Notes under the pieces: generated by a model
Told to the model about the DNA's origin: nothing
Database searches by the model: none
The model's input: only the letters and a program-made list of their open reading frames with translations
Position numbers and translations under genes: made by a program
Shown: in pieces, positions 329 to 5,280 of the stretch
Position numbering within the stretch: position 1 is the stretch's first letter
How the letters are laid out: the number at the start of each line of letters is the position of its first letter
Origin: a virus
Lineage: Duplodnaviria > Heunggongvirae > Uroviricota > Caudoviricetes
Virus record (IMG/VR): IMGVR_UViG_2778261453_000016
DNA: 5,280 bases
Direction: 5' to 3' (one strand)

Positions 329-880
329 ATGACTCAAGACTATGAACTGGTTGTGAAAGGAGTTCGCAATTTTGAGAATAAAGTGGCGGTAACTGTAGCC
401 TTACGGGACAAAAAACACTTTGACGGTGAAATTTTTGACTTGGACATCTCGCTGGACCGTGTTGAAGGTGCCGCGCTGGAGTTTTATGAGGCAGCAGCCA
501 GAAGGAGCATCAGACAGGTCTTCCTGGATGTTGCTGCCGGGTTATGTGAAGGGGATGAGCAGTCGCCGGAAAAGCGCCCCATAATTTTAGAGGCGCAGAA
601 TGTGTGGATAACCTACAAAGGAAAGCTACCGGGAAGAATTACTGGTTCTCTGAAGACGCCACCGACGGCATTGCGGTCAGAAAAAGATGATATTGAATCG
701 CCCATTGAAAAACTGGAGGGCAGCGTCGCTGATCTGAATAAAAAATTGTCGGTGCTGATTCCTTCTGAAGATGAAAAAAAACGCCGCGATGAGCAGTTTG
801 CGGCGTTTTACGATTATTGCATTGAAGTTACTCGCAGGAATTTTGTGAAGATTTTTGAGGAGGGTAAATCTCTTCAGTAA
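329..880 (+). CDS. Hypothetical protein, N-terminal region YdfR/DUF1327-like (recollection-level assignment), 183 aa from ATG 329
   Basis: ORF track gives 308-880 from a TTG; the first ATG is at 329, preceded by a purine-rich stretch (GAGAAGAGAG), 4 nt after the holin stop. The N-terminus (MTQDYELVVKGVRNFENKV...GAALEFYEAAARRS) resembles the small prophage protein YdfR that sits between holin and lysozyme in E. coli Qin, as I recall it. The C-terminal ~110 aa are charged and have no family I recognise. Confidence 0.6.
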   Translation: MTQDYELVVKGVRNFENKVAVTVALRDKKHFDGEIFDLDISLDRVEGAALEFYEAAARRSIRQVFLDVAAGLCEGDEQSPEKRPIILEAQNVWITYKGKLPGRITGSLKTPPTALRSEKDDIESPIEKLEGSVADLNKKLSVLIPSEDEKKRRDEQFAAFYDYCIEVTRRNFVKIFEEGKSLQ

Positions 881-1088
881 GCTTATTGGCGGACGCTGCA
901 ATTAATTCAGGAAGGTCCGCAAGGTCATCTGTCAGTGGATATGATGAAAAATCGGCGGCAGTTCTGTTAAGAAGCGCTTTAACTAATTCCTTTTCCTTCT
1001 CCGGCATCAAGTTGATTAGAGCTACGACTGCTTGCCTGAGTGCGATTAAATCAGCAAAAGTTTGTTTTGGTAGATTTGTGTAATCCAT
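828..1088 (-). CDS. Hypothetical small acidic protein (86 aa), convergent with and overlapping the 3' end of the 329-880 gene
   Basis: Minus-strand ORF with ATG at 1088-1086, preceded in the mRNA by AGAGGCGACU-AUG (GAGG, 5-nt spacer). The predicted protein is helical and acidic (MDYTNLPKQTFADLIALRQAVVALINLMPEKEKELVKALL...). It overlaps the upstream + gene by 53 nt. No recognisable family. Confidence 0.4.
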   Translation of the reverse strand: MDYTNLPKQTFADLIALRQAVVALINLMPEKEKELVKALLNRTAADFSSYPLTDDLADLPELIAASANKLTEEIYPPQKSSQNSCE

Positions 1089-2412: not shown

Positions 2413-2441
2413 TTGCTATGGTTGGTTAATCATGCGTTAAT
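2413..2441 (+). promoter_or_regulatory. Candidate sigma70 promoter of the cold-shock gene (-35 TTGCTA, 17-bp spacer, -10 GTTAAT), with AT-rich upstream element
   Basis: Hexamers at 2413-2418 and 2436-2441. The layout resembles the cspA promoter (TTGCAT/CTTAAT as I recall it). It predicts a 5' UTR of about 140 nt, typical of CspA-family genes. A GGTTTGTTACAAA motif at 2448-2462 resembles the cspA cold box. Confidence 0.4.
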
Positions 2442-2589
2442 GGTGTTCTGGTTTGTTACAAAATTATCTGAAGCAGTCATTGTTATAATTTTATTATTTG
2501 TACCTCTTGAGATTTCCTTGTTGGTTTTTCTCTCTGATATTTTTTTTCGGACCATTCTGCCCAAGGGCTAACTTCTTCAAAAGGTAATA

Positions 2590-2805
2590 ATGATGTCTAA
2601 CAAAATGACTGGTTTAGTGAAATGGTTTAACCCTGAAAAAGGTTTTGGTTTCATCACGCCGAAAGATGGTAGCAAAGATGTGTTTGTCCATTTCTCAGCT
2701 ATTCAGAGCAACGATTTCAAAACGTTAACTGAGAATCAGGAAGTCGAATTTGGTATTGAGAACGGACCTAAAGGCCCCGCGGCTGTTCATGTTGTGGCAC
2801 TTTGA
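2590..2805 (+). CDS. cspI: CspA-family cold-shock protein (CspI/CspB-like), 70-71 aa
   Basis: Translation [41 protein letters not shown]... carries the RNP1 (KGFGFI) and RNP2 (VFVHF) motifs of the cold-shock domain. AAGG Shine-Dalgarno at 2581-2584. The true start may be the second ATG at 2593 (MSNKMTG). Paralog assignment (cspI versus cspB) is from memory and from synteny with the Qin prophage, and is not certain. Confidence 0.9.
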
Positions 2806-3004
2806 GGTAGAAAATATTACAAACCATATTCACTTTAGATGCCCGTGTTGCCATGGTTCTCAGTATAGAACATCATCTTTTGATGTTTCTGACAGGAATC
2901 CTTTCGGGGCAAAATGTATCTTTTGTAAATCAATGATGATTACATTTGATAATATTTCACAATACTTAAATGTTAGCCGTCTGTCGTTAGATTTAAGAAA
3001 GTGA
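2789..3004 (+). CDS. Hypothetical Cys-rich small protein (possible zinc-ribbon, C-x-C-C...C-x2-C), start uncertain
   Basis: ORF 2750-3004 (TTG start); the first ATG at 2789 overlaps the last 17 nt of the csp gene. It contains [12 protein letters not shown]...GAKCIFCKS. Its stop lies 6 nt before a strong intrinsic terminator. No clear Shine-Dalgarno, so translation would need coupling to csp. It may be non-coding 3' UTR. Confidence 0.3.
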
Positions 3005-3307: not shown

Positions 3308-3479
3308 TTTGATTCTAATGCATTGATAATAAATGATAATCATCTTTATCTGTTTGTGTGAAATTTAGACCGTCGTATGTTGATTATTGCGATGTTTCAT
3401 CTTATCTTTTATACGTTTGCTCCATATAATTGACACTACTGTGTACCAGGAAAGTCATAACAGACTAAAAGAGGAAATG

Positions 3480-3653
3480 ATGAACATTGAAGAGTTAAAA
3501 ACAAAAACAGAAGCAGATATTTCTGAATATATAACAAAAAAAATCATTGAGCTTAAGAAAAAGACCGGGAAAGAAGTTACCAGTATCCAGTTTACTGCAC
3601 GGGAAAAAATGACTGGTCTTGAAAGCTATGATATCAAGATTGATTTAATCTAG
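3480..3653 (+). CDS. gnsB: GnsA/GnsB-family protein (57 aa)
   Basis: Translation MNIEELKTKTEADISEYITKKIIELKKKTGKEVTSIQFTAREKMTGLESYDIKIDLI closely parallels the recalled E. coli GnsA/GnsB sequences (MNIEELKKQAE...TGKEVSEIRFTAREKMTGLESYDVKI...) and has the same length. GAGG at 3471-3474 is 5 nt before ATG 3480. The ORF track's longer 3387 start is unlikely. GnsB lies next to cspI in the Qin prophage. Confidence 0.75.
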   Translation: MNIEELKTKTEADISEYITKKIIELKKKTGKEVTSIQFTAREKMTGLESYDIKIDLI

Positions 3654-3948: not shown

Positions 3949-4155
3949 ATGCATAAAGATCAATACACTGATGACTCATCCCTGGATCAGGTCCGTGTAA
4001 AAACTATGCTCACTAGCACCATTTCTATGAGTTATCCGGATGTTGTAATTGCATGTATAGAACATCAAGTGTCTCTGGAAGCATTCAGGGCAATTGAGGC
4101 AGCGTTGGTGAAGCACGATAAGAATTCGAAGGATTATTCCCTGGTGGTTGACTGA
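3949..4155 (+). CDS. Hypothetical small prophage protein (68 aa), possibly YbcW/YnfO-like by position
   Basis: ATG at 3949 with GGAG at 3937-3940 (7-nt spacer). Translation [68 protein letters not shown]. Size and position (second gene before the terminase small-subunit gene) match the 68-aa ybcW slot in DLP12, but I cannot confirm homology from memory. Confidence 0.5.
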
Positions 4156-4405
4156 TCACCATAACTGCTAACCATTCAAACTATTTCACCTGTGACAGAG
4201 TCAATATCGCATTCTGTCACTGTCAGGCTAATACAGAACTACAATTCAACTACTGCAATGCCTCGTAATTAGGTGAATTTACAATATCGTCCTGTTCGGA
4301 TGCCAACTGCATTTCTGAGGATAAGGCGTTTATGACTCACATATTTGTCCCACACGCTCGCCAGTCCTGTGCGGGGTGGGAGGGGAGGTAAAGAAACCGG
4401 GATGT

Positions 4406-4600
4406 TCATCCATCATCACTTTGGATTGATGTATATGCTCTCTTTTCTGACGTTAGTCTCCGACGGCAGGCTTCAATGACCCAGGCTGAGAAATTCCCAG
4501 CCCCTTTTTGCTCAAGAGCGATGTTAATTTGTTCAATCATTTGGTTAGGAAAGCGGATGTTGCGGGTTGTTGTTCTGCAGGTTCTGTTCTTCGTTGACAT
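4406..4600 (-). CDS. Small ribbon-helix-helix-like putative DNA-binding protein (64 aa), possibly YlcI/DUF3950-like
   Basis: Minus-strand ORF. The mRNA has GGGG 7 nt before the AUG. Basic N-terminus (MSTKNRTCRTTTRNIR) then a pattern compatible with RHH: beta-strand (IRFPNQMIEQI), helix, G-x-x-S turn (GAGNFSAW), helix (VIEACRRRL). It sits just upstream of cos and is divergent from nu1, the position of ylcI next to nohD in DLP12 as I recall. Confidence 0.5.
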   Translation of the reverse strand: MSTKNRTCRTTTRNIRFPNQMIEQINIALEQKGAGNFSAWVIEACRRRLTSEKRAYTSIQSDDG

Positions 4601-4767
4601 GAGGTTGCCCCGTATTCAGTGTCGCTGATTTGTATTGTCTGAAGTTGTTTTTACGTTAAGTTGATGCAGATCAATTAATACGATACCTGCGTCATAATTG
4701 ATTATTTGACGTGGTTTGATGGCGTAGATGCACGTTGTGACATGTAGATGATAATTATTATCATTTT

Positions 4768-4790
4768 GCGGGTCCTTTCCGGCGATCCGA
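4768..4790 (+). other. cosQ-like region upstream of cosN (by similarity to the lambda right end)
   Basis: GGGTCCTTTCCGGCGATCCGACAGGTTACG directly precedes the cohesive-end sequence and matches my recollection of the lambda right-end/cosQ region. Exact cosQ boundaries are not determinable from sequence alone. Confidence 0.45.
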
Positions 4791-4799
4791 CAGGTTACG

Positions 4800-4811
4800 G
4801 GGCGGCGACCT
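4800..4811 (+). other. cosN cohesive-end sequence GGGCGGCGACCT (lambda-type 12-nt cos overhang)
   Basis: Exact match to the 12-nt lambda cohesive end. The downstream sequence (CGCGG...TTTATGAAAATTTTCCGGTTTAAGGCGTTTCCGTTCTTCTTCG...) tracks the lambda left end nearly base for base. Confidence 0.85.
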
Positions 4812-4851
4812 CGCGGTTTTTCACTATTTATGAAAATTTTCCGGTTTAAGG

Positions 4852-4865: not shown

Positions 4866-4906
4866 TTCGCCGTAACCTAATGTTTTTATTTAAAACACCC
4901 CCTGAA

Positions 4907-4922
4907 AAGAAAGGAAACGACA
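4907..4922 (-). promoter_or_regulatory. cosB R2 element (inverted orientation)
   Basis: AGAAAGGAAACGACAG is the exact reverse complement of 4949-4964 (a 16-bp perfect inverted repeat). It matches the lambda R2/R1 arrangement. Confidence 0.75.
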
Positions 4923-4948
4923 GGTGCTGAAAACGGGCTTTTTGGCCT

Positions 4949-4964
4949 CTGTCGTTTCCTTTCT
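4949..4964 (+). promoter_or_regulatory. cosB R1 element, CTGTCGTTTCCTTTCT
   Basis: Perfect inverted partner of R2. It lies about 25 nt upstream of the Nu1 start, as in lambda. Confidence 0.75.
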
Positions 4965-4988
4965 CTGTTTTTGTCCGTGGAATGAACA

Positions 4989-5280
4989 ATGGAAGTCAAC
5001 AAAAAGCAGCTGGCTGACATTTTCGGCGCGAGTATCCGTACCATTCAGAACTGGCAGGAGCAGGGAATGCCCGTTCTGCGGGGTGGTGGCAAGGGTAATG
5101 AGGTACTTTATGACTCTGCCGCCGCCATAAAATGGTATGCCGAAAGGGATGCTGAAATTGAGAACGAAAAGCTGCGCCGGGAAGTTGAAGAACTGAGGCA
5201 GGACAGCGAGACAGATCTCCAGCCAGGGACTATTGAGTACGAACGCCATCGACTTACGCGTGCGCAGGCCGACGCACAGG
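4989..5280 (+). CDS. nu1: Terminase small subunit Nu1 (lambda gpNu1 / NohA-NohD family), N-terminal 97 codons; 3' end beyond window
   Basis: ATG at 4989. Translation [69 protein letters not shown]... is near-identical to the lambda Nu1 N-terminus (winged HTH that binds cosB). The ORF runs in frame to the window end, so it is truncated by the window. Confidence 0.92.

Follow-up and report, generated by a model that had tools for sequence, protein, structure and literature searches.

The small gene beside cos in a lambda-like phage: a YlcI/YnfO-family member and candidate ribbon-helix-helix regulator

What is a 64-codon reading frame doing next to the cohesive-end site of a lambda-like phage, on the strand opposite to the packaging genes? 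We addressed this question for a 5,280-nucleotide stretch of DNA, hereafter the window, from the Caudoviricetes record IMGVR_UViG_2778261453_000016. In the window, the right end of a lambda-like genome continues across cos into the left end. An earlier note had described in it a 64-residue protein with a ribbon-helix-helix (RHH)-like pattern, about 200 bp from cosN and on the strand opposite to nu1, that could regulate late or moron genes, bind the cos region, or form the antitoxin-like half of a small module. The placement proved exact when read from the sequence: the open reading frame (ORF) is intact and divergent from nu1, and 199 bp separate its ATG from the cosN nick. Its translation is MSTKNRTCRTTTRNIRFPNQMIEQINIALEQKGAGNFSAWVIEACRRRLTSEKRAYTSIQSDDG, and its surroundings are as follows, with the anatomy of cos taken from a review (PMC9026076).

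4406..4600, minus strand: coding sequence of the YlcI/YnfO family (DUF3950), 64 residues, ATG at 4600, from the ORF listing; probably an RHH protein
4608..4611, minus strand: Shine-Dalgarno-like GGGG, 7 nt before the ATG, read from the sequence
4770-4776: cosQ, GGGTCCT, context outside the ORF's unit, read from the sequence, identical to the lambda ends
4800-4811: cosN, the lambda cohesive end GGGCGGCGACCT, context outside the ORF's unit, identical to the lambda ends
4989, opposite strand to the ORF: ATG of nu1 (Pfam Phage_Nu1, E 3.5e-60)

On balance, we favor the view that this gene encodes a small RHH transcription regulator on a backward-facing unit of its own, served by a promoter region that bears FNR and Fur boxes. 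Its reality as a gene can be stated plainly. The 64-codon frame is a genuine protein-coding gene under purifying selection, and more than a chance frame, because it combines matches to DUF3950, YlcI_YnfO_N and phrog_949 with intact homologues and low ratios of non-synonymous to synonymous substitution (dN/dS). The protein scores 70.8 bits against Pfam DUF3950 (PF13132; cut-off 25) and 39 bits against NCBIfam YlcI_YnfO_N (NF041551; cut-off 30), and it matches phrog_949, a family without known function, at E 9.3e-34. Wherever dS was measurable among diverged Enterobacterales homologues, pairwise dN/dS lay between 0.03 and 0.2, which argues that the ORF encodes a protein. In the remaining diverged pairs, synonymous sites are saturated and the core K-x-I-R-F-P ... 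N-F-S-A-W-V-x-E/D-A-C is retained. The window–lambda pair is uninformative for selection, with 2 synonymous and 5 non-synonymous changes, mostly in the tails. Across 20 diverse members, I15, R16, F37 and V41 are invariant, and F17, I25, S38, A39, W40, A44 and C45 are nearly so. The DUF3950 NFS(A)W motif corresponds to N36-F37-S38-A39-W40 of the window protein, within a core of ~30 residues. Diverged homologues carry stronger ribosome-binding elements, GAGG or GGAGG, at the equivalent start.

The ORF is the lambda-family orthologue of Escherichia coli K-12 ylcI (DLP12 prophage) and ynfO (Qin prophage). The family was therefore already catalogued (DUF3950; YlcI/YnfO), a point absent from the earlier note. 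DNA of the gene is found in 3,776 of 5,426 complete E. coli genomes (~70%), often several times and in up to 10 copies per genome. The NCBI Prokaryotic Genome Annotation Pipeline annotates these copies as 'YlcI/YnfO family protein' and in many cases names the gene ylcI or ynfO, and the window DNA is 90-99% identical to the ylcI-labelled genes of complete genomes. Phage lambda itself holds an intact 64-residue copy (complement 48109-48303) that differs from the window protein at five residues: R8C, S34A and three in the C-terminal tail. The lambda copy has no annotation in J02459 or RefSeq NC_001416; phage O276, a lambda-derived RefSeq record, does annotate a lambda-type copy. The gene is also not among the targets of the lambda CRISPR interference essentiality map. 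Its identification with the 'orf-64' of the lambda literature was considered and rejected, as orf-64 is lambdap73, located between Q and S. As late as 2024, ynfO was entered as uncharacterized in a survey of poorly characterised E. coli genes (PMC11551758), and our literature search gave no functional paper on ylcI or ynfO, in agreement with the earlier statement that function in lambdoid prophages is unestablished.

How far does the family extend? A genome scan, with one genome per species, recovered ~45 distinct intact homologues of 51-129 residues (most 51-77). All genuine hosts are Enterobacterales, namely Escherichia, Shigella, Klebsiella, Enterobacter, Citrobacter, Serratia, Pectobacterium, Brenneria, Pantoea, Salmonella arizonae/diarizonae, Erwinia, Tatumella, Buttiauxella, Leminorella, Xenorhabdus and Rouxiella. 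Together with the dN/dS values, these homologues bear out the conservation of the ORF, on which the earlier note had made its proposal depend. Among 1.84 billion cluster representatives, only 135 related clusters were found, many of them frameshifted copies on short (~3.5 kb) lambda-like contigs. Assemblies of unrelated organisms, among them Streptomyces, Algoriphagus, Cohnella and Staphylococcus, also contain lambda right-end DNA on short contigs (L005-L036; proteins P0001-P0120). These and the error-laden ~3.5 kb contigs are probably spike-in or control DNA, and they make the family look more diverse and broader in host range than it is. A Firmicutes-type sister family of unannotated proteins without a Pfam domain (P0248, P0253-P0280; ~41-91 residues, most ~60) is homologous to DUF3950 at 98.8% probability by hhalign. 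One of its proteins comes from an Oscillospiraceae metagenome bin; judged by such alignments, the family would reach beyond the Enterobacterales. An intermediate-sequence search with P0248, the most divergent member, gave only unannotated proteins.

We then consider what kind of protein is encoded. It very likely folds as an RHH protomer, a conclusion drawn from tests that are individually weak and concordant. The segments are listed by residue.

Residues 1-12: N-terminal arm, basic
Residues 13-18: predicted beta-strand RNIRFP
Residues 19-32: helix A in the AlphaFold2 model
Between helices A and B: loop G-A-G-N-F-S
Residues 34-60: helix B in the AlphaFold2 model

The AlphaFold2 monomer (predicted local distance difference test score 68) leaves residues 1-18 unstructured ahead of the two helices. 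This modeled shape is what an RHH protomer without its partner chain should show, since the strand is expected only in the dimer. When the family profile was compared with all Protein Data Bank (PDB) sequences, the top match was a CopG-family RHH protein (9kkd_A), in register, at E 0.17. Foldseek against the PDB returned mostly ParD2 (TM 0.52/0.65), Arc and TCP-domain proteins, which are RHH or RHH-like, with E-values >1; against the BFVD viral library, the top match and three more were CopG/RHH proteins, likewise with E-values >1. We also aligned the family with hhalign to a hand-compiled set of 15 classical RHH cores (Arc, Mnt, CopG, NikR, ParD, omega, ParG, FitA, AmrZ, CcdA, RelB, DinJ, PutA and two TraY repeats). 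The score was 21.0 (P 3.4e-4); 100 column shuffles gave 7.1 +/- 1.5 (maximum 13.6), and a helix-turn-helix (HTH) control set gave 10.7. The alignment places I-R-F-P on the L-R-W-P of Arc, followed by helix A, the Gly loop and helix B. RHH profile-match probabilities were only 33-61%, the upper value being that of the sister family (P 8e-5). Pfam RHH models gave no direct match, and a permissive scan of 20 members yielded a single RHH_6 match at E 0.09. The helices, the PDB profile match, the Foldseek neighbors and the hhalign score relative to shuffles and the HTH control support the earlier RHH-like call.

If the protein is a regulator, the DNA ahead of its gene should be informative. The 123 bp upstream of the gene are 100% identical between the window and lambda, and the ylcI–nu1 intergenic region contains the following elements.

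4661..4674: FNR box TTGATGCAGATCAA, TTGAT-N4-ATCAA, 10/10 match, centre at 4667.5, 67 nt upstream of the ATG
4634..4639, minus strand: -10-like GACAAT of a candidate promoter, starting 29 nt past the FNR-box centre
4670..4702: inverted repeat ATCAATTAATACG / CGTCATAATTGAT, 13-nt arms, 85% complementary, 7 nt apart
4744..4762 (lambda 48447-48465): Fur box GTAGATGATAATTATTATC, in the ylcI–nu1 intergenic DNA, just left of cosQ
4737-4764, plus strand: promoter-like GTGACA-16-TATCAT, directed towards cos and nu1 and overlapped by the Fur box

The FNR box is part of a 24-nt segment, TTAAGTTGATGCAGATCAATTAAT (4656-4679), that exactly matches the FNR target of nohA/nohB, a match found in 0 of 200 shuffles. 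Grainger et al. reported an FNR target upstream of nohA and nohB by chromatin immunoprecipitation on microarrays and confirmed it by electrophoretic mobility shift assay (PMC1802558). Myers et al. later described FNR peaks by chromatin immunoprecipitation sequencing at 'ylcI/nohB' (estimated target ylcI) and 'nohA/ynfO', and the ylcI/nohB motif score of 16.68 bits is the highest among the entries listed from that study (PMC3688515). Read from its spacing, the pairing of box and GACAAT would correspond to class II (-41.5) geometry for a candidate promoter facing the RHH gene. FNR boxes, perfect or 9/10, recur at -69 in the Salmonella pathogenicity island 5 (SPI-5) copies (L045, L048) and in a Citrobacter copy (L068), with -10-like TAAAGT or GAAAGT at the same offset in L045 and L068. 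The proteins of these three loci are only ~37-55% identical to that of the window and the central four bases of the box differ. Because of this divergence and the retained offset of the -10-like element, we read the box at -67/-69 in three lineages as functional conservation and not as shared ancestry of the flanking DNA. Two published results weigh against FNR control of the gene: Table S9 of Myers et al. places both loci under no FNR-dependent expression change (PMC3688515), and the only reporter (lacZ) fusion pointed at nohA and had low activity (PMC1802558). Our consensus sigma-70 scan also found no promoter on the minus strand.

The inverted repeat at 4670-4702 overlaps the right half of the FNR box and is identical in lambda. 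It is a candidate operator, yet it may merely reflect the FNR half-sites. The lambda version of the Fur box matches the consensus at 16 of 19 positions (0 of 200 shuffles). Fur sites have been assigned at nohA (-233, confirmed by gel shift) and at nohB (-133, predicted) (PMC2189734), and these correspond to 4744-4762. The assignments predate the annotation of ylcI and ynfO, and Fur may act here on the promoter of either side. Strong FNR and Fur sites long credited to 'nohA/nohB' thus sit in intergenic DNA shared with a ylcI-type gene. The motif GTAGATG occurs twice in this DNA, 20 bp apart (4724-4730 and 4744-4750); the first copy, which reads CTCCACG in lambda, is where the nearly identical intergenic regions of window and lambda mainly differ. 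An Rfam scan of the ylcI–cos region gave no match.

Taken with the predicted fold, these elements outline how the favored regulator might work. As a dimer, the protein would read DNA with a two-stranded beta-ribbon formed by residues 12-18 (T-R-N-I-R-F-P), together with the N-terminal arm. With moderate support, which includes the operator-like arrays of satellite copies described below, it would act as a sequence-specific regulator, most likely a repressor that also controls its own promoter. Its independent transcription unit would point back into the late operon, oriented like lambda bor, and the class II FNR box and the Fur box further upstream would tie expression to host anaerobic and iron signals. 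A unit of its own fits K-12 RNA-seq, where ybcW–ylcI figures among the convergent excludons (PMC12288877). Regulation of late or moron genes, as the earlier note proposed, is plausible for such a protein.

The contexts in which homologues occur provide an independent view. In lambda-type and Qin-type loci, the gene is divergent from nu1, and in Qin-type loci a DUF1398 gene (ydfO) follows ynfO after 43 bp on the same strand. In Shiga toxin (Stx) phages, which have an unrelated HNH/TerS/TerL module, the homologue is divergent at the edge of the module, with the HNH gene between it and the terminase genes. Other copies belong to satellite-like islands that encode AlpA, a primase, a P4-type integrase and an AntA antirepressor, with alpA/antA on one side of the gene and the primase operon on the other; YlcI/YnfO has been described as a recurrent accessory gene of Enterobacter capsid-forming phage-inducible chromosomal islands (cf-PICIs) in a 2026 paper (PMC13612085). 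In Salmonella arizonae/diarizonae (L045, L048, ~5001-5171), the gene lies between sopB (IpgD family) and pipD (Peptidase_C69), the SPI-5 position. This Salmonella copy may be SPI-5 orfX, a gene with no function assigned to it. In Tatumella and Pantoea, the gene adjoins housekeeping genes. It is nearly always a lone small gene, and clustering of the neighbors of 43 genuine loci revealed no family shared across context classes.

The satellite copies are accompanied by repeats with the look of operators. A 12-bp element, GTG-N6-CAC, occurs 2-4 times between the primase operon and the DUF3950 gene of cf-PICI-like satellites. The copies precede the DUF3950 gene at about -100, -77 and -30 from its ATG, with spacings of ~23 and ~46 bp.

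L004, 4590-4700: GTG-N6-CAC array
L046, L053, L059 and L072, ~4880-4990: GTG-N6-CAC arrays
L073, 3650-3740: GTG-N6-CAC array
L046, ~4790-4850: leader hairpin of the satellites, with equivalents in L004, L047, L049, L053, L054, L059, L063-L066, L072 and L073

The -30 repeat overlaps a -10-like TATAGT, and the -77 repeat abuts an opposite-strand TTGAC(G) directed at the primase operon. Within one element the repeats are uniform, but they differ from element to element, and the centres follow the residues preceding I-R-F. T-K-G occurs with YAYAWA, Y-K-G with TKTAAA, K-K-G/N/H with TGCRYA, and x-K-K with CGGCCA or CCCCCA. We infer that the arrays are arranged like operators for a repressor, placed between divergent promoters, although linkage alone could give the co-variation. 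A paper on cf-PICIs describes no repressor for these elements, and Gram-negative PICIs are said to be activated via AlpA. The upstream region of lambda-type loci contains no GTG-N6-CAC array or convincing shared operator. A separate feature of the satellites is a highly conserved GC-rich hairpin, of the GAGGCCCGG-TTAGTGTTAGCGCAC-TGCCGGGCTTC type, located in the leader of the operon on the primase side; none of the five satellite loci scanned gave an Rfam match for it at the gathering threshold.

Does the position beside cos point to packaging instead? The protein could bind in or near cos and help or restrain terminase, or shield the prophage cos from cutting. The 199-bp distance from cosN in lambda-type phages would fit such a role, as would the divergent Stx-phage homologue at the edge of a different packaging module. 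A satellite protein, P0195 (L004 4714-5103), adds to this: a complete 129-residue ORF in an integrase/AlpA/primase island, it joins DUF3950 to the N-terminal HTH region of the Terminase_2 small subunit (29.1 bits against a Pfam cut-off of 26.1). This fusion is the only hint of a packaging link. Across the family, linkage to cos or a small terminase is confined to lambda-type and Stx-type phages, and it is absent from satellites, Salmonella arizonae, Tatumella and Pantoea. Even in the Stx phage, the HNH gene intervenes before the terminase genes. Moreover, cosQ, cosN and cosB, terminase and IHF already account for lambda packaging (PMC9026076), and the PICI packaging redirector Rpp belongs not to DUF3950 but to the winged HTH proteins. 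A link to Rpp, which redirects lambda terminase, was considered separately and rejected, as the two proteins are unrelated. We regard a packaging role as improbable. Binding of the cos region, suggested in the earlier note, fares poorly for a family whose members in PICI-like satellites, at chromosomal sites and in SPI-5-like islands have no cos anywhere near them. The nearness to cos looks incidental because this is the last gene of a variable accessory cluster between the lysis and packaging modules.

The remaining explanations concern partners other than terminase. An orphan or unrecognised antitoxin, which would neutralise a toxin nearby or elsewhere and autoregulate, has some appeal given that RHH is a common antitoxin fold, that ParD2 is among the better Foldseek matches, and that a weak HicB-like PHROG match exists (E 0.08). 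Each candidate toxin falls short, however. The GnsA/GnsB 'toxin' family gene at 3477-3653 is on the other strand, ~750 bp away, and absent from lambda; the DUF1398 gene of the Qin-type arrangement is absent from the window; and the 46-residue ORF that overlaps the stop codon in the window is only 17 residues long in lambda and has no family match. The C-terminal tails are short and unconserved and so offer no toxin-binding extension, PADLOC found no match for the family loci, and across ~40 loci the gene is mostly alone, without a conserved co-oriented partner. The antitoxin-like half of a module proposed earlier, and the toxin-like partner sought in related elements, thus did not materialise in any form shared across context classes, and we judge this explanation slightly less credible again than packaging. 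It is unlikely, if somewhat less so, that the family primarily represses cf-PICI-type satellites, with the phage copies acting on or mimicking that repressor. In this scheme, the satellite protein would bind GTG-N6-CAC operators over its own promoter and the divergent primase-operon promoter. The operator-like arrays whose centres track beta-strand residues, the recurrence of YlcI/YnfO in Enterobacter cf-PICIs (PMC13612085), the lack of a described repressor in the paper on cf-PICIs, and the K/R-x-I-R-F-P ... NFSAWV core common to phage and satellite copies all point this way. The scheme is nevertheless wholly inferential: the lambda-type locus lacks the arrays, phage and satellite proteins are only ~40-45% identical, and the family also occurs in contexts that are neither phage nor satellite. 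We give a similarly low probability to its stronger form, in which YlcI-family RHH proteins are the repressors (immunity determinants) of cf-PICIs and the FNR/Fur-wired phage copies a channel for helper–satellite sensing or silencing. Finally, the protein might be dispensable and the DNA or an antisense transcript matter, for example through interference with the late operon or ybcW. The gene is antisense to the lambda late operon and to the satellite alpA–primase operon, its upstream 123 bp do not differ between window and lambda, and K-12 RNA-seq detected a convergent excludon, that is, overlapping convergent transcripts, at ybcW–ylcI (PMC12288877). Strong purifying selection on amino acids while synonymous sites are saturated, a protein motif kept across 37-55% identity, and good ribosome-binding sites at a conserved start make this very hard to believe.

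The rest of the window carries lysis genes and a variable accessory cluster. Directly downstream of the RHH gene, an 87-bp in-frame insertion (window 4303-4389) lengthens the overlapping ORF from the 17 residues of lambda to 46. This ORF had no family match and a PADLOC match at chance level only, and RNA downstream of the RHH gene folded no better than shuffles.

4269..4409, minus strand: 46-residue ORF whose ATG overlaps the stop of the RHH gene (ATGA), of uncertain status
109-324: holin
Between holin and endolysin: YdfR-like DUF1327 gene
828-1088, minus strand: 86-residue ORF between the ydfR-like gene and the endolysin, no significant Pfam match
1202-1735: endolysin
After the endolysin: Rz-like gene
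2590-2805: cold-shock gene with a cspA-type leader
2435-2851, plus strand: match to the Rfam cspA thermoregulator (109.8 bits; gathering score 78) over the cold-shock coding region and its leader
Upstream of gnsB: ynfN-like gene
3477-3653, plus strand: gnsB-like gene (Pfam GnsA/GnsB toxin, E 2e-33)
3949-4155: ybcW/lambdap79-like gene

The cold-shock gene, the ynfN-like gene and gnsB form a Qin-type accessory set that is absent from lambda.

The gene has stayed intact in DLP12 and Qin, K-12 prophages that are themselves decayed. If the satellite homologues are repressors, a gap in how Gram-negative phage satellites stay silent would be filled, and if phage and satellite copies do communicate, phage lambda would gain an overlooked regulatory gene. 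If the satellite homologues are not repressors, an ordinary small accessory regulator remains.

Among known systems, the closest are K-12 YlcI (DLP12, b4589) and YnfO (Qin, b4533), which belong to the same family, are divergent from the Nu1 homologues nohD(nohB) and nohA, and share the identical FNR site and an equivalent intergenic Fur box. YnfO-type proteins differ in a longer, distinct C-terminus (77 residues) and in the DUF1398 gene that follows. The position beside cos is shared with lambda Nu1 and PICI Rpp, whereas those are MerR-type winged HTH proteins that bind cosB-type sites and pair with TerL, functions to which DUF3950 is unlinked. RHH antitoxins (ParD, CopG-type and the HicB C-terminal domain) probably have the same fold; DUF3950, in contrast to them, is not accompanied by a neighboring toxin gene and lacks a conserved C-terminal segment for neutralisation. 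The satellite copies, and these alone, would have functional analogues in the master repressors of satellites, such as Stl of the Staphylococcus aureus pathogenicity islands: the gene is divergent to the replication operon and repeated, element-specific sites cover both promoters, although the fold is different. Arc and Mnt of phage P22, AmrZ and CopG align with the family, in order and register, over the x-I/L-R-F/W-P strand, helix A, the Gly-containing loop, N/S-x-S where helix B begins, and helix B, and Arc and Mnt are small phage-encoded proteins too. In Arc, N11 and R13 contact bases, and these residues align with N14 and R16 of the ORF protein. DUF3950 is set apart from this group by its 12-residue basic, Thr-rich arm and by NFSAWV-x-E/D-AC with conserved Trp and Cys. 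A regulator at this locus would be a further example of a known RHH kind, from a family previously catalogued.

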